Source: Methanobacteriota archaeon (GTDB lineage Archaea; Thermoplasmatota; Thermoplasmata; SG8-5; JAGLSY01). Taken from it: 64,000 nt of DNA. The position numbers were made by a program, and so were the translations under genes. Below, piece by piece: positions 4,474-51,388 of the stretch; the stretch's first letter is position 1, and each line of letters begins with the position of its first letter. The stretch covers positions 64,001 to 128,000 of the forward strand of contig JAEHCO010000002.1 of NCBI GenBank assembly GCA_020697715.1. The letters run 5' to 3'. The notes beneath the pieces were generated by a model that was given only the letters and a program-made list of their open reading frames with translations, was not told the origin of the DNA and searched no databases.

Positions 4474-5409
4474 TCATCGCCCCCTGAAATGCTCATAGCC
4501 CTTGTCTTCCAGAGTGATATGCTGGCTACCTGATGATATATGCACGATATTATCATCCACCACTCTGCCGATGGGGGTCACTTTTGTCCCTGCCAGGCCT
4601 GTTGATGGAATGGATCCCAATTTATTGGGATCCGCGGTGAAAAGAAGTTCGAACTCCCCGCCCAGATGAAGGCATTTTTGTCTATCTTCATCTGATAGGC
4701 CGCCGATGAAGGGTATGCTTTCCATATCCAGTTCGAAGCCAATTTTTCCAGATCTCTTCAGGTGATGGACCGAAGTGCTCAGGCCATCCGATAGATCAAT
4801 GCAGGATGTGACTGCCCCGCTCTGTGCCAGCATCTGTCCTTCTCTGACCCTGGGCTGAACTCTGAGGAGGGATTCGATATCCAATTCGGCCTTGGTCTTG
4901 TACCATCCGAGTTGACTTCCCAATTCCCCTGTGAGGAATACGATGTCACCAGGCTTTGCCCCGCTTCGTTTCATGATGTCATTCTTTCCAACCAGTCCTA
5001 GTGCGGTCCCGGTTATACTGATAGTGTCATTTTCTTTGGTATCGCCGCCGAGAACCCTGGCTCCATGTGCCTTGCAGCAATCGTCGATACCTTTTGATAT
5101 ATCGTCGAGAAAGTCAATATCCATGTCCGATGGTAGCCCCAGCGCGAAGAGCATACCAAGGGGAAAACCACCCATGCTGGCAATATCACTGAGATTGATA
5201 GCGGTGACATACCATCCAATTAACCACCCGCGCGTGCCCTCTGGTATATGTGTTCTCTGATTGATCATATCCGTGGTGGCAAGCAGATACTCCTTGCCAA
5301 GATCCACCATCGCGCAGTCATCGCCGATGAGCATCTGGCCATCTGGATCGAATGTCTCCATTAATTTCAGGATAGCCTGCTTCTCCCCCATATCGCCAAG
5401 GATGGTCAT
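4474..5409 (-). CDS. thiL: Thiamine-monophosphate kinase
   Basis: GDDCA, NLSDIASMGG, GGDT, DLSDGL and GEFELLFT motifs. Confidence 0.93.
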   Translation of the reverse strand: MTILGDMGEKQAILKLMETFDPDGQMLIGDDCAMVDLGKEYLLATTDMINQRTHIPEGTRGWLIGWYVTAINLSDIASMGGFPLGMLFALGLPSDMDIDFLDDISKGIDDCCKAHGARVLGGDTKENDTISITGTALGLVGKNDIMKRSGAKPGDIVFLTGELGSQLGWYKTKAELDIESLLRVQPRVREGQMLAQSGAVTSCIDLSDGLSTSVHHLKRSGKIGFELDMESIPFIGGLSDEDRQKCLHLGGEFELLFTADPNKLGSIPSTGLAGTKVTPIGRVVDDNIVHISSGSQHITLEDKGYEHFRGR

Positions 5410-32684: not shown

Positions 32685-33461
32685 CTACTTTCTTTTTCCA
32701 GCCAGCTTTTTATTGATGAGGATCATTCCTATCAACAGTGCTGAAATTCCGATCAATATGAACAAAGTAGCGGACACATTACTACCTTCGACAAAGAAAT
32801 CCTCAGAGACTTTGATATCTCCCATGATGGGGTCTATTATCCCATCATCGTTGACATCGACGATGATTGTGGATGTGTGCCATCCATCATCTATATCTTC
32901 GGATACCCAATTGGATGTCAGGGTAGTAGATTCTCCAGCTCCCAGGTAAGATAATGTATCGGTGGATATCAGTACGTCATCAACATAGAATTCGACACTT
33001 GCATTTTTTATATTGACCTCTCCTGAATTGAGGATCTTGGTAGAGATGACAACTGGTTCTATCACATTTATATCGAACTCCCTTGTCTGCCACAGAGTGC
33101 CTGTTGGGGATGATACATTGACTATCATGATCATTTCACCAAGATTCGTCATGGCCGTGATGTCGGCAGAGAATGTGTCATTCCCTGCAGTCAAATTCCC
33201 TGTGATCGGTTCTATCTCCAAAGGCGAGGCCCCTGTGATGTTTCTCGCATCTATGTGTACGCTGTATGCCCAGTTACGATCCTGTGGGTCTATCAGAGTT
33301 ATATCATAATGACCTTGACTATTGTGTGCTAGAACATCGGGTCCACTAACATGCAATAATACATCATCCGCATTGCCCTCAGCAGATACCATTGAACCTA
33401 TGAAGGCCATGGAAATAAAGGCCAATGCGATCACTATCGGAATATACTTGCCACGGTTCAT
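32685..33461 (-). CDS. CARDB/Ig-like membrane-anchored protein
   Basis: Signal peptide, ILNSG...VEFYVD...GES...W...G.H, C-terminal TM; start overlaps the aglB stop. Confidence 0.82.
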   Translation of the reverse strand: MNRGKYIPIVIALAFISMAFIGSMVSAEGNADDVLLHVSGPDVLAHNSQGHYDITLIDPQDRNWAYSVHIDARNITGASPLEIEPITGNLTAGNDTFSADITAMTNLGEMIMIVNVSSPTGTLWQTREFDINVIEPVVISTKILNSGEVNIKNASVEFYVDDVLISTDTLSYLGAGESTTLTSNWVSEDIDDGWHTSTIIVDVNDDGIIDPIMGDIKVSEDFFVEGSNVSATLFILIGISALLIGMILINKKLAGKRK

Positions 33462-36400
33462 CTTAACCACCTCTTTTTCTTCATGACATAGAACATTATC
33501 AGACCAAAGGTCACTGATATCACGGTTATGACCCCTCCGATTATCGGGTTCTCTGTTGACACATCATGGATGGAATCACCTGTTATTGTGATATCCCCCT
33601 TGTTCATGTCTATGTCTGGATATGATACAAGTAGGCTTTCAGAGTCATACACCGAGGTATCATCCTGAGAAGTGGTTCCTATCATCAGAGAAACAGTTCT
33701 ATATGGATTATCACTTATTTGCTCCAGAGTGATTGGTAGAACAGCATTGCCATTCGCGAGTATCGAGACATTGAATACCTCGGTACCATCTGCTGACAGA
33801 TCTCCGCTAGTGAACTTCACATCCCAACCATTGGTCTCCAGTTCTTCTTGATTGACAATATAGACCCTTACATTATCATCAATATTACCGTTATTGTTGA
33901 TGTTAACGTTCCAGTTCAGTGTTTGTCCATCCATGGTGATAGGTATTGGTGATCCCATCACATTTAATTCATAGACATGCTCGATGGAGATGTCCAATGT
34001 CGTGGTCTTTTGAAGTCCCGCACTCTTCATCGAAGCAACTGTGACGACAACGGGGTCGTGTTTGACAAGGGAGCCTTCAGTTACTGTGAACTGTGCAGTG
34101 ATCGTGCGCTTCGCTCCAAAGTCAAGATCTATCCTTGACTCGGAAACAGTAGGTGACCAATCTGCTCCTCCTCCATTTATTATGATATCATAGGTGTCCG
34201 GGGCATTTCCCAGGTTCTCTATTATGATCTCGTATTCAACGACTGTTGTGGGTGATATTACACCAGTGAACAATGGAGTTGAGGATACAGCAATATCAAA
34301 GCTCTCTATTTTTGTCAGAGGTAAGTTTTTTCGCAGATCATCGATAACCTCTATCTGAGTGTCGAGAGTGTATACGACATCAATGTTATTCTCAACATTG
34401 GTGAGATCCCCACTCACATCATAGGTATCGTCTGGAAGCCAGATATTGTAATGTCCATCAGAGTCTGTTGTGATGTTTATGCTTCCAGATGTTGTTCGGA
34501 AGTCAAGCATTGTTTCCTTGTGCTGGTTGAGATTGAAATACACTTCGCCAGATACCCCATATCCCTTATCCAGGGTCATGTTCATTATGATCTTATCATA
34601 AACATACAGGTCGACCGAGTCAAGGTAGACATCGTTTGATGCAGGGTCATGGGCATATATATCATATGGCCCTGGTTGGATCATGAATTCATAATGTCCG
34701 TCCATGTCGGAGGTCACGCGATATGTTTCTCTGCTGGATCTGAAGACGATCTCTGTATTGGCTCCACTATCTCCATTATCGAGTGTGATATTTCCTGAAA
34801 TATCAATTAAGAACTCTTTGCGTTGCAAGTCAAGGTCTTTCATAACAGAAGTACCGACCATTGTCGATATGGTCACATTGTCGGTGCTATCCTCTTCATT
34901 AAGATAGTACTTGTAGGTTGTAGTGAGGCCACTATCTTCAGATTGGCTTAGGAATCCTATATCAATTCTGTAGTTCTTGCCACTTACAAGGTATACGGAA
35001 TAATCCGAATTCTCATCTGTCACGGCATAGATCACATCATCATTGCTAAGATCTGTAAAGACGATCTCATGCCCCTCGAAGGTGTCTATCCCATAGGTAA
35101 CTTGGCCAGATAGTTCGAAGGCAGGTTTGAGTGATACCGATATCTCGGCCATGGCCGAGACATTGAACACATCACATTCCATGAATATGTTCTCCCCTTC
35201 TGCGAAATGAGCCTGTACGATATAATCACCAGGGACAAGGTAAAGATCCATTCCTCCCGACTCAATATCTGCCGACATGTACTCTGGTCCTATGAAGGAA
35301 ACATTTCCTGCGGTTGGGGCGCCTTCTAACAGTAGTTCCATATTGAATTTGATCCTCTTCTGGACGGTCAAGTTCATCTCAATATCAGAACCTGTGTATA
35401 ATCCAGTGAACATAACGAATTCTTCTTCTATCTGTAAGATCTCCGTGTCATTGTCCAATGTGGTATTCTTCTCTATATTGACCACGTATAGACCCGGAAC
35501 AAGCTCTGTTGTAAAGGTACCATCAGTTTCCATCTGGACCGAATTATCCACTCCCCCATCTTCTATGGCGGAAGTGAATTGGATGAATGCATTCTCATTT
35601 AGAAGTAGCTCATCATCATAATAGACAGTTCCAGTCACAGGAATGATCTCTGGGATCAATTCCTCTATGAATGCAGTTTCCATCATGGTCGAGTGAGACA
35701 TGCGTCCCAGGTCAAGAGTGTGGTATCCTTCCTTGACCACTTCTATTGTGTAGTATATGTTTGTATAAAGTGATCTATTAGCAATTCCATTGATGTCCGA
35801 AACAGAGGTTATTACTTGGCCATTATCCAGTTTGTAGTATATGGTCGCACCTTCTATTCCTTCACCAGCTTGGATCTCACCATCTCCATTGATGTCTCTG
35901 AATATGGCCATGGTGTTCTTGAAAGCCTCTTCCAGTGATATAGTGATCTCATCATTGTTCGCATTGAATGTTTGACGGGATGCATGCACGTACTCTTCAG
36001 AAGCATAGATGTCTGAGGAATATATGTCATAGACTCCTGGAGGTATGTTGATACTGAAGGATCCTTCTTCATTGCTGATAGCGGTAATGAGGAAATCATC
36101 ATCAACGGATTTCATGTATATTGCCTGGTTGGCTATTGGAAGATCAACATTCGTTCTTACTACATCTCCTTTGACCTTCACCCCTTCCAATAATATGATG
36201 TCTGCGGTTGCATCACTGAACAGATCCATTCGTGAAGCATACACATATTCCTTATCGTCAACAGGATAGCTACAATAGATCATGCTGATCCCCACATCAA
36301 GGTTTGCTTCGAAGACTCCATCCTCATCTGATATCAAGAGTATGTCTGATTCCTGACCATCATCGAGGAAGGTCACTCTGATATTGGCTTGAGGTGCAGG

Positions 36401-39400
36401 ATTTCCTGATGGCATCGATATTGTTCCTTGGAGCATTATTGAATCTGCTAATGTCAGAGTTATTGAATTGTTCTCAAGGTGCTTGATCTCTATCGAGGTC
36501 AATGAACTTGCCTGACCCTCATATGTGGCCTGGATCTGATAATCTCCATAAAGAAGGTTATCGAATGCAAAGGATCCATTATCGCCTGTTGTTGTGATCT
36601 TTGCATCTTCATTTCGTATCCATATCTCGACCTCGGCTCCAATAACAGGCTCTCCTTCTGGTCCATTGACCGACCCGGTCAATGGCGTTGGTTCAAGACC
36701 CCACAGGCCTTCTGTGGATTGTCCAGAGATATATGTCTGGGCGACCGTCGTGATAGGTCTTCCTGCATATGATATGTCAACTGTAGCTGGTCCAGGTACG
36801 AAATTGTCTATCACAAGTTTTCCATCTTCGTCTGTAACACCTGTGATGGAATATTCTAGATTATCACTTGTTATAGTTACGTCCGCGCCTGCCAGGACTT
36901 CATCATCGACCTCATAGTAGATGCCGTCCCCGTTAATGTCCCAGTAGACCCATCCATCAATAGAAGCACTTGGTATGACAACATCATGCTTGATCATATA
37001 ATCATAGATGCCGTCCCCATTCTTGTCCACTTCTTCTCTCATGGCCTGATAGTCCTCGATGAACATCTCTGTGGAATTCAATTCAGAACCAATGAGTGTC
37101 AATGGGTTGAGTTCTCCGTAGGACACTGTTACAGTTATATCATCGTATGGAACAATAAGTGAGTACTCACCTTTTGCATCAGTGGTCACTGTGTGATGTG
37201 GTATATCGAAATTGTCATGAACTGTTACAGAAGCTCCTTCTACAGGGGTCCCATCATCCAGTGTCACTGCACCGCTTACTATAGCTCCATCATAGTATTT
37301 CAGGATCATAACGCCCTGATACATGCTGGACCTGTCACTGAGATCGGATATTCCATTTCCAGATGTCTGTTTTTCATACGCATCCCAATATTCGGTCGCG
37401 CGCCAGGCATCTGTGTGGTTCTGTATATTGCTCATGTCATAAGGATTCCAATAAGCGGTCCTATGCTCCAGTTTGAAGTGGGTCATATTCCATGCAGGCA
37501 TGATCGGTGTTTCGGTCATGCTTGCGCTGACAGCAGGTATGCCGCCATCATCATTGCTCATCCCTACATCTTCGCCACTGTAACCAACAAAGGCTTTGTA
37601 AAGCATTGAATTGTAGAACATATCCTGATAAACGATCTTGTATGGGTTGTTCGGGTCAAGGTTCACATCGGCTGGGATCTCTCCCAGATCGTATTCGCCT
37701 CCGAATTCTCCAACTGCCTTGATCTGCCAGAAATCATATGGCTGATTTCCTTCATCTCCACTTGATATTCTGTGATCAGAAAGCTTTGCAGGCGCATAGA
37801 AAATACCTGTGTTCTGAGCACTGAATGGGAATAATCTGCTGTCTATGGCGAAGTATCTTATGGAATCACCAGAAAGGTCTCTTATATCATTATATAGAGA
37901 TACTATCTGTTCCAGATTTAGATTCTCTGATATCTCTCCACGAACTGCAAGGTATTTTGCATTTTCTGGCTGTAAGATCTCATCCCTTGGACTATAAATA
38001 TCTGGATTATCCCATATCAATTCTTTGTATTCATCAGGGTTGATCAGCATATTCGCGATCCTATCGGTATCTAGACCATATGAATCAAGTAGAACTATCA
38101 TCTCAGGGCTCATCTCATAGGCGACATCATACATAGGTCCACGCCAATCTGCCTCGATTATCCTTGTGATAAGAAGAGCTATAGCATCGGCCTCGCCTTG
38201 AGCCATTATGAAGTTACCTGCCAACTGGTGACCACCAAGGAAATTATCGGCCACTGTCGGGTGTTGACCTTCATTTACAGCTTCGAAACCATAATCCCAC
38301 CAACTTAGATATGCTGGTCTATCTTCAGGTGGATAAATATCCTGATCCTGAGTGGCCAGCCAATCATAGGCCGCAGGGTAATATTTGCTATTCTGAGGTA
38401 GTGAGTAACCAAAGGCTCCGAAGAACCAATTGGTACCATTTATCGCATCATAGGATTCTGGTTGTAGGAACAGTGGCATTGTGTCGTATACTTGTTTGTC
38501 ATATGTCAATTTTGTTTCATACGGTATACCTGCATCGATGCCAGTCCATACATTTGGAAGAACTATGGCGAATGCAAGGAATAGAATTCCAACTACAAAG
38601 GAGATCTTGCTTTTCCTTATGATCATAAGAAGTATGATATCCATAAAAAGCAAAGCACCAAGAATGAAAGCATGGGTCGCAGATGTAAGCTCCCAATTTC
38701 CGATGACAAATCCATACATGTAAATTATTGCTCCAGTTATTGGGATCAATAGAGCCAACAGGTAGTATGTCCTGTTCGGGTTCAATTCCGCTATGGTGTT
38801 CATAAGCAATACGGACACAAGTGCCAGTATGCCGATCACCAAAACTGCCATGGCAATGCCGATATCCGTGGATAGGCCAGCCACTACGGCCAGTAATACC
38901 GCACCAGATACCAACAGACCGATCTTGAAACTCTTTGGGATCGGAGCGCTTACGAGACGTTTCTGCGTATCAATGAACTCTCTGAAATTAAGCTTCTCGA
39001 TAATCAAAGCTATTACCCATGCCGCTGTAATTGCGAAAACAGGAGCGGCATTGAACATGAAACGAGCTGCGTTTATGGCCATGTAGATAGATGTGGCAGT
39101 CCATACAAGCACGAAAATATAATCGAACTTCATGCGCTTTGGCAATTGGTAAGCTGCCCAAGCAATACCTATGAAGGAAAGCCAGAAGGTCATGACACCA
39201 AATGATAGGGCTAGATTACTGAATGGAGGTGCCTGCGCTTCTGCAATGGTTTGATACTGTTTGTTCTGAACAAAGTATCCTGCACCGCTTGCGACCGCAT
39301 TTGTTATGGTATCATATGTTTCTGGTATTGCTAGCTTCATGACGAACACTGCAATTATTGCGAGAATCAAAGAACCAACAATGACAAGAAGCCATGGAAG

Positions 39401-40579
39401 CTTCCTGGTGACCACCAATACCGCACCTATGGCCAGAGCGGCCAGGAACATGTAAGTAGGTGTGTCGAACCAGCTTCCAATCTGATATGATTGATAATAA
39501 TATGGATATACCAATAAGAGTGCAAGGCCAACTGTAATGAAATATGACATGAGAACACCGAGAGAATCCGTGTTCCTGAACCTATCCATAAGCAACTGGA
39601 TAAGAAGGTATACTGTCAATATCACAATAACATAGGCGTAACCCTTCCAGGTCAAAGCAACAGCGGCCAATGAGATAGCGGCCAACATCGAGTATAAGAT
39701 GGTATCCTTATTGCTACGTATAAGGTCCGGGATACCTTCCTTAATTGAATCAATTTTGAGCCAATCTTTGACCCATGTCTTTTCTTTCAGACCTTTCAAG
39801 GACTTCAAGAAGAAGTAGAAAGTTAATACAATAAAGAATAGAGCAAATGCATCGTGATCAGCATTTGTAAGAACACTACGTTGTATATGGCCAGGCATGA
39901 TAGCCAGCAGGAAGGCGGCAATATAACCGGTCTTCTTGCCAAAGGCTTCTTTTGCCAAGAAATAGGTAGGTACTATGGTCAAAGCTCCCCAGAAGGCTGT
40001 TGAGAATATGAAGACATACCAAGTGGCTTCAAAATTATCTCCTCCGAACATAGGGGTTAGAGCTATACCTCCAAGGTAGACGGACCAGTCATAAAGTGGA
40101 GGACGTGGGTTCCTTGTACCCAATGGGTAGTTGAGCATGTCATCCCAAAAGTGAAGTTCACCAGTGTCCTGAGCATGTGAAATCACAAAGTGGTGATAGT
40201 AAGAATCAGAACCCCCAGACAGCAAAAAGCCATCTTCGGTGGCAGGTTCTAGACCAAAATACGCTCTCATGAATAATCCAAGAGAGAATAATACCATCAA
40301 TATCATTATCGTTTTCCAGTTCTTATCGAGCCAGGAACCTTTCCACCTAAGGTCGATACCCATAGGTGCTTTTGCGGTTTCCTTTTTAGCAGGTTTAGAA
40401 TGCCCCTCTTCGTAATGCTTGTTCTTAAGCTTCTTCACTCCTCTGGGGAGATCTGGCTCTGGGCTGGATTCTTGGACCTTGGAATCAACACTAATATCCT
40501 CGGTCTGCTCAGGTATCTCTGCAATATCCGACGATACGGGATCTTCAGATATTTCTTCGTTTTTCTTTTTAGTAGACAT
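33458..40579 (-). CDS. aglB: Giant oligosaccharyltransferase AglB/STT3 with multiple C-terminal beta-sandwich domains (~2370 aa)
   Basis: DSYYH, DHD, TIAE, SWWDYG and VADN motifs; repeated carboxypeptidase-regulatory-like segments; C-terminal TM + KKKR; GGTGA-N4-ATG at 40579. Confidence 0.93.
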   Translation of the reverse strand: MSTKKKNEEISEDPVSSDIAEIPEQTEDISVDSKVQESSPEPDLPRGVKKLKNKHYEEGHSKPAKKETAKAPMGIDLRWKGSWLDKNWKTIMILMVLFSLGLFMRAYFGLEPATEDGFLLSGGSDSYYHHFVISHAQDTGELHFWDDMLNYPLGTRNPRPPLYDWSVYLGGIALTPMFGGDNFEATWYVFIFSTAFWGALTIVPTYFLAKEAFGKKTGYIAAFLLAIMPGHIQRSVLTNADHDAFALFFIVLTFYFFLKSLKGLKEKTWVKDWLKIDSIKEGIPDLIRSNKDTILYSMLAAISLAAVALTWKGYAYVIVILTVYLLIQLLMDRFRNTDSLGVLMSYFITVGLALLLVYPYYYQSYQIGSWFDTPTYMFLAALAIGAVLVVTRKLPWLLVIVGSLILAIIAVFVMKLAIPETYDTITNAVASGAGYFVQNKQYQTIAEAQAPPFSNLALSFGVMTFWLSFIGIAWAAYQLPKRMKFDYIFVLVWTATSIYMAINAARFMFNAAPVFAITAAWVIALIIEKLNFREFIDTQKRLVSAPIPKSFKIGLLVSGAVLLAVVAGLSTDIGIAMAVLVIGILALVSVLLMNTIAELNPNRTYYLLALLIPITGAIIYMYGFVIGNWELTSATHAFILGALLFMDIILLMIIRKSKISFVVGILFLAFAIVLPNVWTGIDAGIPYETKLTYDKQVYDTMPLFLQPESYDAINGTNWFFGAFGYSLPQNSKYYPAAYDWLATQDQDIYPPEDRPAYLSWWDYGFEAVNEGQHPTVADNFLGGHQLAGNFIMAQGEADAIALLITRIIEADWRGPMYDVAYEMSPEMIVLLDSYGLDTDRIANMLINPDEYKELIWDNPDIYSPRDEILQPENAKYLAVRGEISENLNLEQIVSLYNDIRDLSGDSIRYFAIDSRLFPFSAQNTGIFYAPAKLSDHRISSGDEGNQPYDFWQIKAVGEFGGEYDLGEIPADVNLDPNNPYKIVYQDMFYNSMLYKAFVGYSGEDVGMSNDDGGIPAVSASMTETPIMPAWNMTHFKLEHRTAYWNPYDMSNIQNHTDAWRATEYWDAYEKQTSGNGISDLSDRSSMYQGVMILKYYDGAIVSGAVTLDDGTPVEGASVTVHDNFDIPHHTVTTDAKGEYSLIVPYDDITVTVSYGELNPLTLIGSELNSTEMFIEDYQAMREEVDKNGDGIYDYMIKHDVVIPSASIDGWVYWDINGDGIYYEVDDEVLAGADVTITSDNLEYSITGVTDEDGKLVIDNFVPGPATVDISYAGRPITTVAQTYISGQSTEGLWGLEPTPLTGSVNGPEGEPVIGAEVEIWIRNEDAKITTTGDNGSFAFDNLLYGDYQIQATYEGQASSLTSIEIKHLENNSITLTLADSIMLQGTISMPSGNPAPQANIRVTFLDDGQESDILLISDEDGVFEANLDVGISMIYCSYPVDDKEYVYASRMDLFSDATADIILLEGVKVKGDVVRTNVDLPIANQAIYMKSVDDDFLITAISNEEGSFSINIPPGVYDIYSSDIYASEEYVHASRQTFNANNDEITISLEEAFKNTMAIFRDINGDGEIQAGEGIEGATIYYKLDNGQVITSVSDINGIANRSLYTNIYYTIEVVKEGYHTLDLGRMSHSTMMETAFIEELIPEIIPVTGTVYYDDELLLNENAFIQFTSAIEDGGVDNSVQMETDGTFTTELVPGLYVVNIEKNTTLDNDTEILQIEEEFVMFTGLYTGSDIEMNLTVQKRIKFNMELLLEGAPTAGNVSFIGPEYMSADIESGGMDLYLVPGDYIVQAHFAEGENIFMECDVFNVSAMAEISVSLKPAFELSGQVTYGIDTFEGHEIVFTDLSNDDVIYAVTDENSDYSVYLVSGKNYRIDIGFLSQSEDSGLTTTYKYYLNEEDSTDNVTISTMVGTSVMKDLDLQRKEFLIDISGNITLDNGDSGANTEIVFRSSRETYRVTSDMDGHYEFMIQPGPYDIYAHDPASNDVYLDSVDLYVYDKIIMNMTLDKGYGVSGEVYFNLNQHKETMLDFRTTSGSINITTDSDGHYNIWLPDDTYDVSGDLTNVENNIDVVYTLDTQIEVIDDLRKNLPLTKIESFDIAVSSTPLFTGVISPTTVVEYEIIIENLGNAPDTYDIIINGGGADWSPTVSESRIDLDFGAKRTITAQFTVTEGSLVKHDPVVVTVASMKSAGLQKTTTLDISIEHVYELNVMGSPIPITMDGQTLNWNVNINNNGNIDDNVRVYIVNQEELETNGWDVKFTSGDLSADGTEVFNVSILANGNAVLPITLEQISDNPYRTVSLMIGTTSQDDTSVYDSESLLVSYPDIDMNKGDITITGDSIHDVSTENPIIGGVITVISVTFGLIMFYVMKKKRWLR

Positions 40580-40717
40580 AGTCTCACCGAAATTCGACGG
40601 AATTGTCCTTCTTCCGTTGTTCGAATGAATATATTTAGTTATTATTGGGTTATCGTCGCTGAAATATGCGCCTTTATAAATACTTATGTATGAATTATAA
40701 GGATATATCCACATAAT

Positions 40718-41610: not shown

Positions 41611-42315
41611 TTGTCGAGTAAGCCAAGAATAAAAACATACATTCAGGGATTGGATGAGCAATTGAACGGTGGAGTGCCGGTAGGACATGTTTGCCTTGTA
41701 TCTGGGATGCCAGGAACAATGAAATCATCTGTAACTTACAGTATCTTACACAATAATGCGAAGCATGAGGGGAAGAAAGGACTTTACATTTCATTAGAGC
41801 AAGGCCGTGACTCTTTGATCGAGCATATGGATGGTCTTGGCATGCCTATTGAAGAAGTAGAGAGCCTGGTGAATATCGTTGATATCGGATATCTGAGATT
41901 GAACATGGACACCTCATCGGAACAACAGAGCTGGATGCGTATCTTCAAGATGTACGCGGAGAACCTCCATGTTAGCAATGAATATGAGATATTGATATGC
42001 GATTCATTGCCTGTTTTGGAATTACTGGCAGATGTTGACAATCGCAGAGCGGAACTGTTCCATTTCTTCGGCTGGCTCAGAGAATTGGGTGTCACCACCT
42101 TCCTTATTGCCGAGGCTTCGGATCAGGCCAATGTCGTGCATGACGAGGACTTCCTGGCAGATGGTATTATCCGACTAAGAAAGGAACAGATGGGATACGA
42201 TGTCAGCAGGCAGATAGTCATTGACAAGATGAGGACGACCAAGCACAATACTGGCTACTTCAGTCTGATGCTCGATGGGGAGCCCTTCTCGATAACTCGG
42301 GTTATTGGAGATTAG
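41611..42315 (+). CDS. KaiC/RAD55-like single-domain ATPase
   Basis: GLDEQLNGGVP, GMPGTMKS, YISLE, FLADGII, KMRTT; TTG start after GGTGT-N4. Confidence 0.9.
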   Translation: MSSKPRIKTYIQGLDEQLNGGVPVGHVCLVSGMPGTMKSSVTYSILHNNAKHEGKKGLYISLEQGRDSLIEHMDGLGMPIEEVESLVNIVDIGYLRLNMDTSSEQQSWMRIFKMYAENLHVSNEYEILICDSLPVLELLADVDNRRAELFHFFGWLRELGVTTFLIAEASDQANVVHDEDFLADGIIRLRKEQMGYDVSRQIVIDKMRTTKHNTGYFSLMLDGEPFSITRVIGD

Positions 42316-45928: not shown

Positions 45929-47470
45929 CTATTTCTTCACCTGGTAGATAACATCAATAACAGTGCCATCCCTGTACGCGATAATGGCAACAACCCGATC
46001 AGTGTAATTTGGCTCGGGTGCTTTTCCTCCGGCTTTCTGCTCCGCTATCTTGGCCAGGTCCTGAATGTCGATAACATTCAGGTTTGCTTCCTTCGCCATC
46101 TCGATCATGTCATCCCGTAGAGGATTTATCGCGATGCCAGCTTCCGTAACTATTGCATCGATCGTTTCTCCGGGAGTTGTCACATTGGTAACTCGCTCCA
46201 TCACTATCGGGTTGGTCTTTCGATGGGTTGGGCAGGTTATGATCGTCATCTTGGAGCCAGCGGCGACGTCCTGGTGGCCGCCAATTCCATGCAGCAGATA
46301 TCCGTCTGAATGGGTGTTCACATTGACATTGAAGTCGATGTCAACTTCTGTCGCGCCCAAGAAAGCCAAGTCCACCATATTGACGAGCTGGCCTCGATTG
46401 AAGGGGTTGGCATAAAAGTCAGGCTCAATTTCATGATGTTTTGGATTGCTGTTCAATGACTGGATACTGGGTATGTCAAAGCTCTGTGTGTCCAGTATCT
46501 TCTCGATGAGCCCCTCTTCCAGCATCTTGACGATGTGACCGGTTATTCCGCCGTGGGCGAAACCGGCCTTGATATTCTTCTTCTTCATCTTTTCTCTGAT
46601 AAAATCTAGGGCGGCCAGTGATATTCCTCCGGCTCCTGCCTGGAATGAAAAACCATTCTTGATAACACCGCAAGCGTCCGCGAGTTCCACGGTCTGGCGT
46701 GCGATATCCAGACGCATTGGATCTGTTGTCGGTTGCATGGTGCCAGTGGCGATACCCGCTGGATCTCCAATGGAATCAACTTTAACAACCCAATCAACAT
46801 AAACTTGAGAAATCACCGGGGGCATGACCGGATATGGCTGAATATTATCCGTGACGACAACTGTATTCTTCGCGTATCGGGAGTCGGCCAGTGCATAGCC
46901 CAAAGGCCCACAAGCGGACTTTCCTTCGCGACCATTCGCATTGCCGTATGCATCGGCAATGGGAGCCCCGACGAAGGCCGTGTCTATCTTCAGCGCGCCT
47001 ATGTGGATGGCGCGGACACGACTGCCATGTGATCGGAGAACCGCGAGGTCGTGCATCTTTCCTTCGGAGACCGTCCTGCCCACCGGGCCGTTCATACTGC
47101 CCTCGATGGACGATATGGTGCCGTTCTCTATCATCTTCACTATGGGTTCATGTACGGAGAATAACGCGCTCTGTGCCAGTTTAAGGCCCTTTAAACCGCG
47201 TTTTTGGGCTACATCCATCACCATGTTGATGACATGGTCGCCGTTCCTCAGGTGATGGTGGAAGGATAAGCATGCGCCGTGGGTGATGCCGCATTTGTCA
47301 AATGAATCGTCTATGCTGGCTACCATTTTATCCGGTGCATAGCTGGTGGGTTTCAAAGGCAGGGGGACCTTCCAGCCCCTGGCGTGTCTCTCAAAAGCCC
47401 CTTTGTAAGGTACAAGATGTCTTCCTCCGACTATCGATGGTATCTCCCGGCCTACTGCATTGACTGGCAT
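45929..47470 (-). CDS. citF: Citrate lyase alpha-subunit-like CoA-transferase, paralog 2
   Basis: NAVGREIP, SFHHHLRNGD, RSHG.R, GPLGYA, FQAGAGG, GATEVD.DFNVNV.THSDG...GIGGHQD, YRDGTVID. Confidence 0.92.
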   Translation of the reverse strand: MPVNAVGREIPSIVGGRHLVPYKGAFERHARGWKVPLPLKPTSYAPDKMVASIDDSFDKCGITHGACLSFHHHLRNGDHVINMVMDVAQKRGLKGLKLAQSALFSVHEPIVKMIENGTISSIEGSMNGPVGRTVSEGKMHDLAVLRSHGSRVRAIHIGALKIDTAFVGAPIADAYGNANGREGKSACGPLGYALADSRYAKNTVVVTDNIQPYPVMPPVISQVYVDWVVKVDSIGDPAGIATGTMQPTTDPMRLDIARQTVELADACGVIKNGFSFQAGAGGISLAALDFIREKMKKKNIKAGFAHGGITGHIVKMLEEGLIEKILDTQSFDIPSIQSLNSNPKHHEIEPDFYANPFNRGQLVNMVDLAFLGATEVDIDFNVNVNTHSDGYLLHGIGGHQDVAAGSKMTIITCPTHRKTNPIVMERVTNVTTPGETIDAIVTEAGIAINPLRDDMIEMAKEANLNVIDIQDLAKIAEQKAGGKAPEPNYTDRVVAIIAYRDGTVIDVIYQVKK

Positions 47471-47547
47471 TCTTTTTTCACCCCCACTTTTTTCTTTACC
47501 CTCGCTGTGCTGGGCCGGGCTCCAAAGAAAAAAGACGGACAAAATAA

Positions 47548-47582
47548 GAAACTCGCCCGACCCTGCTCGCTCGGGAATTGCC
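47548..47582 (-). repeat. Intergenic repeat family, minimal copy B
   Basis: GGCAATTCCCGAGCGAGCAGG-GTCG-GGCGAGTTTC on the minus strand. Confidence 0.6.
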
Positions 47583-47678
47583 AATTGTCAATCGCCCTAA
47601 CATGGAGAGCCCGTTCGCTTCCTTCATTGGATGAAATTGATGTGTTACTTGAGATATAGGTCATGTCATTGCCTCTGG

Positions 47679-48476
47679 TTACCTATATTCTTCTGGCAGA
47701 TCGCGCTCATCTGGCCCATCATATTCATGCTCTGACGAGTACATCTTGCGCATGGCTCTTTCCCTCGTCATCTCCTCATATGCCTGTGCGACCAAGCCAG
47801 CAGTTCTTCCCATCAGGAAAAAAGCCTTGCCAAGACGGTGATCGAAGCCCATATCGGACATCACCGCGGCAATTGCCCCGTCCACATTTATGGGAAGATG
47901 CTTGCCAGTTTGCTCCTTCAGCTCCTTCTCGATGCACCTGGACAGTTCAACATGCTGTCCAGCTATGCCCGTTTCGTCGGCAAGCGCGAACAGCTTTCCG
48001 GTCCTTGGATCCGCCGTGTGCACCCTGTGTCCGAAGCCTGGCAACCTTTTCTTCTTCTCGCGGGATTCGGCGACGATAAGCCTGGCCACTTCTGGTACGG
48101 CCAGGTCCTCTCCCTTCGCCCTGATGACGCCTTCCTGAAGAAGGAGCGCGCCTTTCTCGATAGCTCCACCGTGAACATCGCCAACTGCCATGATTCCAGC
48201 TGCCACAGCTGTTGGAAGCGGAACACCAGATGAGGCGACAGTTCGCGCCGCCCTTGCTGAAGGCGGCGTTATCCCGTGATCGATGGATGATGTGAGTATG
48301 GCATCCATCATCTTTCCCTCATTGATGGTGGGCATCCTGCCACTCAATATCAGAAATACATTGTGGGAAAAGGGCACATTGCCGATAAGGTCCTCCTGGC
48401 GGTATCCTCGGGTCACCAGACTATTTGGCTCTGCTTTAGTTATGCCAGTCTTCCAAACAGGAGCATCCTCGGACAT
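47679..48476 (-). CDS. ccl: Citryl-CoA lyase (citrate synthase-like fold)
   Basis: WKTGIT, RGY, DHGITPPS, HGGAIE, PGFGHRVH.DPR, NVDG, GRTAGL. Confidence 0.9.
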   Translation of the reverse strand: MSEDAPVWKTGITKAEPNSLVTRGYRQEDLIGNVPFSHNVFLILSGRMPTINEGKMMDAILTSSIDHGITPPSARAARTVASSGVPLPTAVAAGIMAVGDVHGGAIEKGALLLQEGVIRAKGEDLAVPEVARLIVAESREKKKRLPGFGHRVHTADPRTGKLFALADETGIAGQHVELSRCIEKELKEQTGKHLPINVDGAIAAVMSDMGFDHRLGKAFFLMGRTAGLVAQAYEEMTRERAMRKMYSSEHEYDGPDERDLPEEYR

Positions 48477-48481
48477 TGGGC

Positions 48482-50023
48482 TCAGCCCTCCCTCTTGACC
48501 TCTCGGACAACGTCGGTCACGGTCCCGTCCCTGAACTTGATCACGCCAACGAACTTATCAGTATATTCCAGTGGCTCCGGCGCTCCAGTGATATCATAGG
48601 CCATGTCCCGCAATGCCTCAATAGGCTTTGGATCGAACTCTGCCAGGAGCTTCCAAAGGTCCTGCCTTTTCGGATTTATCGTAATTCCCTGGTCAGTGGC
48701 TATCACATCCACGCATTCGCCAGGTGTCGTTACAGTTGTCACCGAATCCCTCACAATGGGATTCGTCTTCCTGGTTATCGGGGTTGTTATGAAAGTGACT
48801 TTGGAACCTGCGGCGGCGTCTGGGTGGCCGCCACTTCCATGAAGAAGCAGTCCATCCGAGTGCGTATTCACATTCACATTGAAGTCCACATCCACCTCGG
48901 TGGCTCCCAGGAAACAAGCGTCCTGCTGATGGGTGATGCAACCCCTGGAATGTGGATTTCCAAAGTGATAATGCGATACCTCGACATGATCTGGATCATT
49001 GAGAAGTGAATCAATGGCCGGGATATCAAATGCCTGGGCATCCAGTATCTTTCTGAGCGTGCCTTCGTGAAGCATATCCACCACCTGGCCGGTTATCCCG
49101 CCCATGGCGAAACTGCCCACGACACCCTTCTCCAACATCCTCTCATGCAGGAATTTGACGACTGCCAGTGACATCCCACCGGCTCCCGCCTGGAAGGAGA
49201 AACCATCTTCCAGCTGGCCGATGGCGTCCATGGCATCCACCACTTGCTGTGCGATCCTCAATCGCACCGGATCTTCTGTGATCTTCATCGTGCCAGTGGC
49301 GATCCCCTTTGGGTCTCCGATATTGTCCACATTGACCACATAATTCACCCTGTGCTCGGGTATGCTTATCGGAGTGCATGGGTATGGTTGAAGGTTATCC
49401 GTGATTATCACAACGCGCTCGGCGAACCAGGAGTCCGCTATTGCGAATCCCATTGGGCCGAACTTCGATTCACCCAGCACACCATTGCAGTTACCTGAAT
49501 CATCAGATGCGGAGGCTGCGAGGAAGGCGACGTCAATGTGCATATTGCCTCTTTCCAGATCAAGAGTTCTTGCACCATGTGTCCGGATAACAACTGGTTC
49601 CTTGCAAGGATTTTCTGAAATATATTTTCCGAGGGGGCCGTTCAGATTCCCCTCAAAGCTGGTGACCACACCATTCTTGATGTGCTCGATCAGTGCCTCT
49701 GTGTGAATTGCAAAAACAGATGAATGGCGCATTCCAATATCCTTGATGCCCTTCTTGGCGATCTCATCCAGCACCATGGCGACGACATAGTCCCCATTCC
49801 TCAGGTGATGGTGGAATGAAATGTTCATACCGCTCTTCAGGCCAGACTTGTCAATTGCTTCCGATATGGATGACAGGAGCTTTTTCTTGCCTGGATTGTG
49901 AGACCATATATTCTTGGATATGGTATTGCCTCTTGGTGGAGTGGCGAATGCCCCTCTGAAAGGCTCTAATTCAATACTGGCTATCTTCTCAGGGATCTCC
50001 CTGCCAACTGCATTCATTACCAT
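48482..50023 (-). CDS. citF: Citrate lyase alpha-subunit-like CoA-transferase, paralog 1
   Basis: Same CitF motifs (SFHHHLRNGD, FQAGAGG, NTHSDG...GSGGHPD, FRDGTVTD). Confidence 0.92.
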   Translation of the reverse strand: MVMNAVGREIPEKIASIELEPFRGAFATPPRGNTISKNIWSHNPGKKKLLSSISEAIDKSGLKSGMNISFHHHLRNGDYVVAMVLDEIAKKGIKDIGMRHSSVFAIHTEALIEHIKNGVVTSFEGNLNGPLGKYISENPCKEPVVIRTHGARTLDLERGNMHIDVAFLAASASDDSGNCNGVLGESKFGPMGFAIADSWFAERVVIITDNLQPYPCTPISIPEHRVNYVVNVDNIGDPKGIATGTMKITEDPVRLRIAQQVVDAMDAIGQLEDGFSFQAGAGGMSLAVVKFLHERMLEKGVVGSFAMGGITGQVVDMLHEGTLRKILDAQAFDIPAIDSLLNDPDHVEVSHYHFGNPHSRGCITHQQDACFLGATEVDVDFNVNVNTHSDGLLLHGSGGHPDAAAGSKVTFITTPITRKTNPIVRDSVTTVTTPGECVDVIATDQGITINPKRQDLWKLLAEFDPKPIEALRDMAYDITGAPEPLEYTDKFVGVIKFRDGTVTDVVREVKREG

Positions 50024-50170
50024 TTTTCGACACCTCGATCAATCCGCTTACTCATACTACGTATGCGGGCTGAAGAAGGCTAATGTTGAATCATATAATT
50101 AAAGGTAGTGTAGAATCATAATTGGGGAATCATTAAATAACCCACGAGTGGATTCAGTGCTGGTGATCTG

Positions 50171-51388
50171 ATAAGCGACCTATCCTCTCTGGTAGTTGCC
50201 GCCATTCTGGCATTCGCCGCACCTCTTATTTGTGAAAGGCTGAAAATACCCATTGTAGTTGGGGAGATAATCTTCGGTCTGGCAGTAGGCCTTATAGCAT
50301 TCGCCGCCCTGGAATTCTACGATGTCAGTATTCTGGAATCTTCAGCTTCTCTCGAATTCCTGGCTCTTATCGGTTTCATATTCTTGATGTTCCTGGCCGG
50401 CCTGGAGATCGACTTCGAGATCCTTCAGGAACAGGGAATAAAATCCTTGATATACGCGATCGCGATATTCGGCGTCACTCTGGCCATATCTTATTTCATA
50501 GTCAGTGCCTTGAGCATATCCGAGGATCCCTTCTTCATGTCCCTGGTTCTCAGTACGACCTCCGTAGGCGTGGTATTGCCCACTCTGAGAGAAACCGGCC
50601 TTAGCAAGACGAAGGCCGGCCAGACAATAATTCTCTCGGCCATTGTGGCTGATTTCGCCACGATGATACTCCTGACATATTATGCGATCGGCATGACCAT
50701 CGATGTATCTGGCGCAGGAGCCATGATGCCTCTTATCTTCATCTTTTTCATCGTATCACTTTTCTTCTCCATCCACTTGGCTGGCAGGCTGGCCATATGG
50801 CACTTCCCCAATACCCTGGTCAAGTTCTTCTCGCAGGATGATGCCACCGAGATGGGTGTTCGGGCTTCCATTGCCATTCTTTTTATCTTCGTGGCCATGT
50901 CCCAGACCATTGGAGGAGAAGCATCCACCAGCATAGCGATCCTGGGAGCTTTCATGGCCGGCGCGGTGATATCATTCACCTTTACGAAACAGGCCATACT
51001 TGAAAAGAAATTATTCGGATTGGGCTTCGGATTCCTCATACCCTTTTTCTTCATCCATCTTGGTATCTCATTTGACTTCCACAGCATACTGGAAGGCACA
51101 GACCTGCTTGGACTGATGCTCGTGTTCCTGGCAATTGCCTTTGCAGTGAAGCTTATACCAGCTTTATTTTTACTACCCACCTTCAAGGCCCGCAATACAC
51201 TGGCTATCGGATTCCTGCTGGCATCCAGGCTCAGCTTGATAATAGCCGCAGCGGAGATAGGTCGTGAATTGGGCATAATTGACGAATCCATGAGAAGTGC
51301 TCTGATACTCGTGGGTATTACGACCAGTATCGTCTGCCCCATGTTGTTCAGGCGCATATACAAAACAGATCCGGAGGTGGTTTCCTGA
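50171..51388 (+). CDS. Cation:proton antiporter (CPA2/Kef family), probable ATA start
   Basis: The frame extends 71 codons upstream of the track start (RLKIPIVVGEIIFG, LMFLAGLEID); TTSVGVV and FLIPFFF motifs. Confidence 0.88.
   Translation: MSDLSSLVVAAILAFAAPLICERLKIPIVVGEIIFGLAVGLIAFAALEFYDVSILESSASLEFLALIGFIFLMFLAGLEIDFEILQEQGIKSLIYAIAIFGVTLAISYFIVSALSISEDPFFMSLVLSTTSVGVVLPTLRETGLSKTKAGQTIILSAIVADFATMILLTYYAIGMTIDVSGAGAMMPLIFIFFIVSLFFSIHLAGRLAIWHFPNTLVKFFSQDDATEMGVRASIAILFIFVAMSQTIGGEASTSIAILGAFMAGAVISFTFTKQAILEKKLFGLGFGFLIPFFFIHLGISFDFHSILEGTDLLGLMLVFLAIAFAVKLIPALFLLPTFKARNTLAIGFLLASRLSLIIAAAEIGRELGIIDESMRSALILVGITTSIVCPMLFRRIYKTDPEVVS

Follow-up and report, generated by a model that had tools for sequence, protein, structure and literature searches.

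A citF-ccl-citF operon in a Thermoplasmatota archaeon points to a probable citrate lyase that needs neither carrier protein nor ATP

In a 64,000-nucleotide stretch of an archaeal genome (GenBank assembly GCA_020697715.1, contig JAEHCO010000002.1, positions 64,001 to 128,000; hereafter the window), an operon at window positions 45929-50023 combines two citrate lyase alpha-type coenzyme A (CoA)-transferases (CitF) with a citrate-synthase-fold citryl-CoA lyase (Ccl). The operon probably encodes a carrier-protein-free, ATP-independent citrate lyase that would act via free CoA thioesters. In the proposed mechanism, CitF would move CoA from acetyl-CoA, or possibly from another acyl-CoA such as succinyl-CoA, to citrate, and the resulting free (3S)-citryl-CoA would be split by Ccl into oxaloacetate and acetyl-CoA. 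If the donor is acetyl-CoA, which is recycled, the net reaction would turn citrate into acetate plus oxaloacetate without ATP or a carrier. CitF would stand in the place of the synthetase CcsAB of the two-step route, and Ccl in the place of CitE and the CitD carrier. The isolated alpha subunit of citrate lyase is said, from the work of Dimroth, Buckel and co-workers and of Heider in 2001, to take acetyl-CoA for acetyl-acyl carrier protein. ATP-independent cleavage via free citryl-CoA had been proposed in an earlier note on this DNA, and the proposal now finds support in genome-wide absences and in co-occurrence. Gene content, absences, exclusive partnerships and module swapping were observed directly; the chemistry, the donor and the direction are what we infer from the known chemistry of the two enzyme families.

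The three genes of the operon are co-directional, and the open reading frame (ORF) map gives the order citF_up-ccl-citF_dn:

48482-50023, minus strand: CitF_up, 513 aa, citrate lyase alpha-type CoA-transferase, apparently the add-on paralog
47679-48476, minus strand: Ccl, 265 aa, short citrate-synthase-fold citryl-CoA lyase
45929-47470, minus strand: CitF_dn, 513 aa, citrate lyase alpha-type CoA-transferase, apparently the core Ccl partner in the order

CitF_up and Ccl are separated by 5 nt, and Ccl and CitF_dn by 208 nt. CitF_up matches Pfam CitF (PF04223) with an E-value of 2.8e-147 and the citF model TIGR01584 with 564 bits (cut-off 501), and its top relatives in the PDB are 2hj0_A (E 5e-140) and 1xr4_A. 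CitF_dn reaches 563 bits with TIGR01584 (cut-off 501), scored on the ORF that begins at a TTG codon (45929-47584). This extent, which had been given before, is 38 codons too long. Relatives of CitF_dn align only from residue 38/39 of the TTG ORF onward, and the methionine at residue 39 begins the stretch ‘MPVNAVGREIP’, parallel to the start of CitF_up; for these reasons the start was moved to M39, which gives the 513-aa protein listed above. Ccl scores 309.7 bits with the citryl-CoA lyase model NF004866 (cut-off 245). It covers only the C-terminal half of Citrate_synt PF00285 (profile positions 166-355 of 357) and so lacks the full-length citrate synthase domain of about 357 profile positions. 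The top solved relative of Ccl is 6hxp_A, deposited as ‘Citryl-CoA lyase’ (E 1.6e-67), and it is followed, at 1e-17 and weaker, by citrate synthases and the lyase module of ATP-citrate lyase. The ORF map and the profile scores confirm two diverged CitF paralogs, with 49% identity to each other, around a citrate-synthase-fold Ccl. The operon contains the alpha subunit that defines the bacterial citrate lyase CitDEF, in two copies, as well as the stand-alone short Ccl of the CcsAB/Ccl system.

The other parts of both systems were searched for in the source genome (G000), a 2.12 Mb assembly in 34 contigs with a completeness of 93.8%. Genome-wide profile searches gave no match to CitD (PF06857), which was found in the E. 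coli control, no match to citE (TIGR01588) at E <= 0.001, and no match to CitG (PF01874), CitX (PF03802) or CitC (PF08218). The control genomes in these searches gave the expected matches. The lack of citD, citE, citC, citG and citX, first noticed in the window, is thus true of the whole 2.12 Mb genome. Only two proteins of G000 carry the citrate synthase domain PF00285, Ccl itself and one of 620 aa that is encoded on contig 11, and this search found no full-length citrate synthase anywhere in the genome. Together with its 444-aa upstream neighbour, the 620-aa protein forms a regular ATP-citrate lyase (C11:890556-893754). AclB scores 309 bits with Citrate_synth_N and 285 bits with Citrate_bind, and AclA has CoA-binding, CoA-ligase and lyase modules. 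Citryl-CoA synthetase subunits are missing from the operon, and the sole pair of this kind in the genome is a true AclB/AclA pair whose AclA is fused to a lyase module of its own. Since the ATP-grasp_2 matches in G000 are the beta subunit of succinyl-CoA synthetase, one AclB and one weak match, there is no separate CcsA/B. AclB/AclA lie in a Krebs-cycle cluster (contig 11, 880001-897000; L016) that holds a LarA-like racemase, fumarase alpha/beta, succinyl-CoA synthetase beta/alpha, an AsnC-type protein, aconitase, AclB, AclA, monomeric isocitrate dehydrogenase and a transporter. As the genome owns an ATP-citrate lyase elsewhere, the operon is an addition rather than a replacement.

The partnership of CitF and Ccl was examined by four profile searches in one set of 401 genomes of the phylum. 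CitF, stand-alone Ccl and CitD were found over the cut-off in 112, 42 and 62 genomes, respectively. All 42 genomes with a stand-alone Ccl have CitF and none of them has CitD. Conversely, none of the 62 CitD genomes has a stand-alone Ccl; their CitF is strong in 60, weak in one and absent in one. Among the matches listed, Ccl and CitF are separated by no more than some tens of bases (e.g. G232:C1, G130:C178 and G183:C1). The HpcH/CitE fold (PF03328) was detected in 21 of 21 CitD control genomes, mostly adjoining CitD and CitF, and in only five of 41 Ccl genomes, where the scores are weaker and the genes unlinked. Ccl and CitF are found together and CitD/CitE are excluded, as a check of co-occurrence would have it if the reading is right, and the pattern indicates that CitF has two mutually exclusive partner sets, either CitD and CitE or Ccl. 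Nearly all Ccl genomes (40 of 42) belong to one family, f23, of which 53 genomes were sampled.

Other arrangements around CitF were also seen. In the sister family f54 (L094, L097-L104, L112), and also in L077 and L078, a protein of 346-360 aa follows CitF. In the two members scanned (L077, L078) it spans PF00285 positions 9-353, which is nearly the whole domain. It shares about 40% identity with Ccl, lies far under normal citrate synthase scores and looks intermediate in form between Ccl and citrate synthase. In f12 (L020, L022-L031), CitF is followed by an aconitase-family dehydratase and a fused CitD-CitE gene (374-383 aa) is located on another contig in most genomes, so that the classical citrate lyase genes are split up there.

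Ccl, in turn, is found with different partners. A metagenome scan was performed with the Ccl alignment, and the best 80 of 479 confirmed loci were kept:

33 of 80 loci: CitF directly upstream of Ccl on the same strand
4 of 80 loci: CitF divergent from Ccl
20 of 80 loci: CcsA/CcsB-type genes beside Ccl
10 of 80 loci: neither partner, where 3 kb or more of upstream sequence is visible
13 of 80 loci: too short to tell

Two CitFs were seen in none of these best 80 loci. The bacterial Ccl relatives in L014 and L015 adjoin CcsAB-type genes and, like the 20 metagenome loci with such genes, bear out the view that citryl-CoA synthetase is the normal partner of Ccl. In a tree of 101 Ccl proteins, restricted to matches whose alignment covers 230 residues or more, five changes of the CitF label are required, and well-supported branches force at least three of them. 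One clade linked to CcsAB falls among clades linked to CitF, and the opposite nesting is observed too. In f23 genomes without CitF, examined in two genomes, a 715-aa AclA-type protein is present instead, and in G175 (L052) the AclA-type gene precedes a B12/radical-SAM gene like the one after Ccl in L064. The strongest argument for CitF acting in place of the synthetase, by making or consuming free citryl-CoA, is this repeated swapping of partners. Residues H102, H150, R158, D199 and R224 of Ccl are invariant in 34 Ccl sequences, including those linked to citryl-CoA synthetase. Because CitF-linked and synthetase-linked members share these His/His/Asp/Arg columns, the substrate is likely to be citryl-CoA rather than another acyl-CoA. 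No CitF-Ccl fusion was found among the best 120 of 8000 scored CitF_dn relatives, which carry CitF-type Pfam domains only; longer forms were not searched for.

The wider cassette shows the same exchange of modules. The order usually seen in f23 and in metagenomes runs from an HD protein of about 173 aa through CitF and Ccl to a fused dehydratase of the isopropylmalate-isomerase/aconitase family. The same HD protein and dehydratase occur with the classical CitD-CitE-CitF (L037, L042) and with CitD-CitE-CitF-HD-CitF (L088), and the arrangements HD-CitD-CitE-CitF-dehydratase and HD-CitF-Ccl-dehydratase are found in sister lineages. CcsA-CcsB-Ccl cassettes with the same HD protein and dehydratase were also observed (L151, L152, L155, L159, L166, L170, L173, L178, L179 and L185), which ties the HD protein to Ccl and citrate handling in general and not to CitF. 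In G000 the HD gene lies outside the operon, on contig 28 at 150325-150861 (L083:6284-6862, minus strand), directly upstream of a dehydratase large/small pair (L083:5005-6267 and 4524-5039). The linked dehydratases score best with models of the isopropylmalate isomerase/homoaconitase type and not with true aconitase. The HD protein keeps the usual metal ligands, and its AlphaFold2 model has a predicted local distance difference test (pLDDT) value of 90. The best Foldseek match of this model is YhaM (E 4e-5, template modelling (TM) score 0.60). From Pfam/NCBIfam, the Atlas, and AlphaFold2 with Foldseek, the HD protein can be called a generic HD phosphohydrolase only.

The form with two CitFs recurs in related genomes. 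The order citF-ccl-citF is kept in public relatives, which are metagenome-assembled genomes of Thermoplasmata/Thermoplasmatota (L008, L012). When 61 relatives were searched, two CitFs were found in all four other members of the family and in one genome of a sister family (G409), which makes six related genomes with G000 included. The contiguous citF-ccl-citF is visible in G000, G403, G404 and G409, and in G401 and G402 the contigs break. G404 and G409 carry a 174-aa HD-domain gene between ccl and citF_dn. In G405 and G406, which belong to the same order, only ccl-HD-citF_dn is present and this CitF is the single one genome-wide. CitD was found in none of 19 genomes searched in the same order, including the other five two-CitF genomes, and in none of three genomes of family f56. 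Among six class-level relatives having CitF adjoining CitE, five have CitD. A class-level relative (L088, G430:C39; noted together with L087, G437:C84) has the order CitD-CitE-CitF-HD-CitF, a classical citrate lyase with the HD gene and a second CitF behind it, and double transferases thus occur in carrier-containing systems too.

The two paralogs differ in ancestry. In a tree of 82 CitF sequences, calculated with a quick method and without the duplicate-genome rows L092, L105, L106, L107 and L109, CitF_dn falls into a clade (support 100) with the Ccl/HD-linked CitFs of the order, including those of the single-CitF genomes G405 and G406. The CitF_up clade contains two-CitF genomes only, with a support of 100 in the Shimodaira-Hasegawa-like approximate likelihood ratio test (SH-aLRT). 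This clade groups at 94 SH-aLRT with CitFs of CitD and CitE genomes (f45, f12, f44, f35). The deeper backbone of the tree is weak, and an earlier tree of 58 rows places CitF_up alike. From these placements, CitF_dn appears to be the ancestral and core Ccl partner in the lineage, and CitF_up appears to be a later addition from a carrier-dependent CitF ancestry, in genomes that lack the carrier. A recent tandem duplication of citF is ruled out by the 49% identity and the separate, well-supported clades.

Both paralogs look functional. Compared with the same-genus locus L008, at a synonymous divergence (dS) of 0.64, the ratio of nonsynonymous to synonymous substitution (dN/dS) is 0.043 for CitF_up and 0.030 for CitF_dn, values that indicate strong purifying selection on both; for Ccl it is 0.106. 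All 60 columns that are invariant in an alignment of 40 CitF sequences are kept by both proteins. Among 130 columns with a conservation of 95% or more in 31 other CitFs, CitF_up keeps 116 and CitF_dn 123. Clade-level changes in these columns number seven for the CitF_dn clade and 14 for the CitF_up clade, among them the change of SHGGRA to THGARTLD. The idea of a dead paralog was rejected on this column conservation and the dN/dS values. For the role of CitF_up, we slightly prefer that of a transferase with another CoA donor or acceptor, at a little under even chances. A role as the second subunit of a mixed dimer is possible and somewhat less probable, and it is unlikely that the two CitFs are plain isoenzymes.

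We favour the direction of cleavage for three reasons. The classical citrate lyases found in the same cassette are cleaving enzymes, the equilibrium favours cleavage at physiological concentrations, and a donor of the succinyl-CoA type would give net acetyl-CoA, as ATP-citrate lyase does. Such a net gain of acetyl-CoA with another donor would fit the positional exchange with the AclA-type gene and would provide a reason for having two transferases. The equilibrium of citrate lyase favours cleavage at millimolar concentrations; by our own estimate, its constant is around 0.5 M.

Several observations speak against the proposed carrier-free cleavage. No residue signature was found that separates Ccl-linked from CitD-linked CitFs, and the conserved HD protein has no place in the proposed mechanism. 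A second cleavage system is not obviously needed in G000, because its ATP-citrate lyase is complete and lies with aconitase and isocitrate dehydrogenase. A specific citrate transporter was not found: G000 has no 2HCT match, and its CitMHS match is to an unspecific family that also matches 13 of 14 control genomes. The completeness of 93.8% has to be considered as well, as citD is a small gene. Finally, full-length citrate synthase is missing from G000 and from 53 of 53 f23 genomes, which would fit a role in citrate synthesis.

This last point leads to the alternative that the pair runs backwards and, in archaea devoid of citrate synthase, takes its part in a way that conserves energy. Ccl would then condense acetyl-CoA and oxaloacetate to citryl-CoA, and CitF would pass the CoA to acetate or succinate without hydrolysis. 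ATP would be gained via succinyl-CoA synthetase or an ADP-forming acetyl-CoA synthetase, and the two CitFs would serve two acceptors. In G000, PF00285 is confined to Ccl and AclA. The best PF00285 E-values in the 53 f23 genomes range from 1e-16 to 1e-43 with none better than 1e-43, and full-length citrate synthases in other families of the phylum score about 1e-76 to 1e-148. The link of the cassette to aconitase-family dehydratases, and the isocitrate/isopropylmalate dehydrogenase in the L078 cassette, would provide steps toward 2-oxoglutarate. There is also a precedent in the reversed ATP-citrate lyase of Desulfobacter postgatei, for which Moller et al. reportedly described citrate formation in 1987, going by the title of the work. 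On the other hand, at physiological levels of the substrates, synthesis from acetate and oxaloacetate against an estimated constant of around 0.5 M would hold citrate in the sub-micromolar range. The classical citrate lyases, which are homologous and share the operon context, are known to cleave, and the ATP-citrate lyase of the genome could already act as the reversible enzyme. We regard reverse operation as improbable, though it survives best among the alternatives. The same holds for its more specific form, a split citrate synthase that keeps the thioester and passes CoA to two acids, with the HD protein tuning a CoA-type cofactor.

It seems less probable still, and in our judgement quite unlikely, that the substrate of the module is not citrate but an analogue of it (2-methylcitrate, citramalate or a compound of the homocitrate type), or that the two CitFs divide citrate and an analogue between them. 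Citramalate lyase has a CitF-like alpha subunit, and the fit of the linked dehydratases to isopropylmalate/homoaconitase-type models could be read in this way. So could the PEP-mutase/isocitrate-lyase-family gene that follows Ccl in L071, as in the methylcitrate cycle, and the 14 of 130 conserved columns altered in the CitF_up clade, with the SHGGRA stretch among them. However, the invariant columns of Ccl match those of Ccl linked to citryl-CoA synthetase, the protein is close to the solved citryl-CoA lyase 6hxp, and both CitFs lie over the citF equivalog cut-off. To our knowledge, enzymes of the citrate synthase fold use oxaloacetate as their sole keto acid.

Very unlikely, finally, is a need of the CitFs for an unrecognised carrier, such as a divergent carrier protein, or for a small-molecule cofactor of the dephospho-CoA type, perhaps made with the help of the HD phosphohydrolase. 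In its favour, every arrangement around CitF includes the HD protein, often with stop and start codons that overlap, the relatives of CitF_up live in CitD genomes, and CitF naturally works on a 3'-dephospho-CoA derivative. Against it, the HD protein is also present in CcsAB-Ccl cassettes without CitF and is therefore not specific to CitF, its gene in G000 has been relocated beside the dehydratase pair, the builders of the prosthetic group, CitG and CitX, were not found in G000, and there is no conserved unexplained small ORF inside the operon.

The remaining features of the locus are the following:

47471-47678: spacer between ccl and citF_dn, 208 nt, of which about 100 nt are a copy of a dispersed repeat
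50024-50383: intergenic region 5' of citF_up, which is divergent from the Na+/H+ exchanger gene; presumed location of the operon promoter
50384-51388: Na_H_Exchanger (PF00999) gene, neighbour of the operon, divergent from citF_up

The repeat segment of about 100 nt (roughly 47475-47580) has at least 15 further copies on eight contigs, with 72-93% identity in a blastn search of the genome. In the same genus (L008, G403), the spacer between ccl and citF_dn is 50 nt long, has no similarity past the ccl stop codon and does not contain the repeat. The spacer was also considered as a structured RNA, but its fold is unexceptional (z = -0.59). As a remnant of the HD gene it was rejected too, because a tblastn search with six HD proteins led to contig 28 and a weak site on contig 11 and not to the window. 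The neighbours of the operon in the window are foreign to citrate metabolism and include leucyl-tRNA synthetase, the Na+/H+ exchanger with TrkA, and a Hef nuclease; they mark the DNA as archaeal. Elsewhere in the window (33458-40714, minus strand, and 41611-42315), a 2418-aa ORF adjoins a methyltransferase and a single-domain KaiC-type ATPase.

Carrier-protein citrate lyase is a route used by fermenting bacteria. The bacterial enzyme CitDEF (Enzyme Commission (EC) number 4.1.3.6; partial reactions EC 2.8.3.10 and 4.1.3.34) uses the same transferase family, with solved alpha subunits 2hj0 and 1xr4 that both CitFs match, and would share the net reaction without ATP, and in this phylum it is found in the same operon context of HD protein and aconitase-family dehydratase. 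However, the genome of the operon has no CitD, CitE or CitC/CitG/CitX, the transferase genes are two, the lyase has the unrelated citrate synthase fold, and the thioester would sit on free CoA. The system can be likened to citrate lyase in its proposed working, but by its gene content it lacks three of the four features that define CitDEF. With CcsAB/Ccl of Hydrogenobacter thermophilus, whose citryl-CoA synthetase and whose citryl-CoA lyase were reportedly described by Aoshima et al. in 2004, the operon has the same lyase and, as proposed here, the free citryl-CoA intermediate, and metagenome cassettes of the two kinds share the HD protein and the dehydratase. Here citryl-CoA would be formed by CoA transfer instead of ATP-dependent ligation. 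Since acetyl-CoA as donor gives no net acetyl-CoA, the role in carbon fixation would differ from that of CcsAB/Ccl. ATP-citrate lyase AclBA carries out the same overall cleavage by way of citryl-CoA bound to the enzyme, and Ccl is a homologue of its C-terminal module; unlike the operon, AclBA is ATP-dependent and fused. Taken together, the system appears to be a widespread variant assembled from the halves of two known systems.

The replacement of an ATP-coupled step by a thioester-conserving CoA transfer is also seen in Krebs cycle variants with succinyl-CoA:acetate CoA-transferase, which, as far as the available text goes, use the Cat1/OXCT1 family at the succinyl-CoA step and not CitF or citryl-CoA (PMC9768450). 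For citrate cleavage in the reversed Krebs cycle, the available part of the same article names ATP-citrate lyase, CcsAB/Ccl and reversed citrate synthase and no other route (PMC9768450, 2022). No description of a CitF and Ccl pair was found in the literature searched in full text, a scope that lies outside subscription journals and supplements. The accessible portions of PMC1403158, PMC3362086, PMC13147460, PMC8322695, PMC11964587, PMC12806544, PMC7164622, PMC9768450 and bioRxiv 2022.10.25.513756 contain no such pair.

If the proposed mechanism is true, a CoA-transferase that feeds a citryl-CoA lyase would be a further route of splitting citrate that dispenses with ATP and with a carrier protein. 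CitF-Ccl pairing is not a rarity: it makes up 37 of the best 80 metagenome Ccl matches, and in 40 of the 53 sampled f23 genomes it is the only equipment of the citrate synthase family besides ATP-citrate lyase. Pathway tools that enter citF under ‘citrate lyase, incomplete’ and file ccl under ‘reductive cycle, incomplete’ would misread the carbon metabolism of abundant sediment archaea. The form with two transferases offers a natural experiment on donor specificity or heteromer formation. Should the improbable reverse operation be true instead, the Krebs cycle would be entered through a split system that conserves energy, and the pair would be a present-day counterpart of the ancestor proposed for citrate synthase. 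The thioester energy that ordinary citrate synthase discards would then be kept and turned into ATP.

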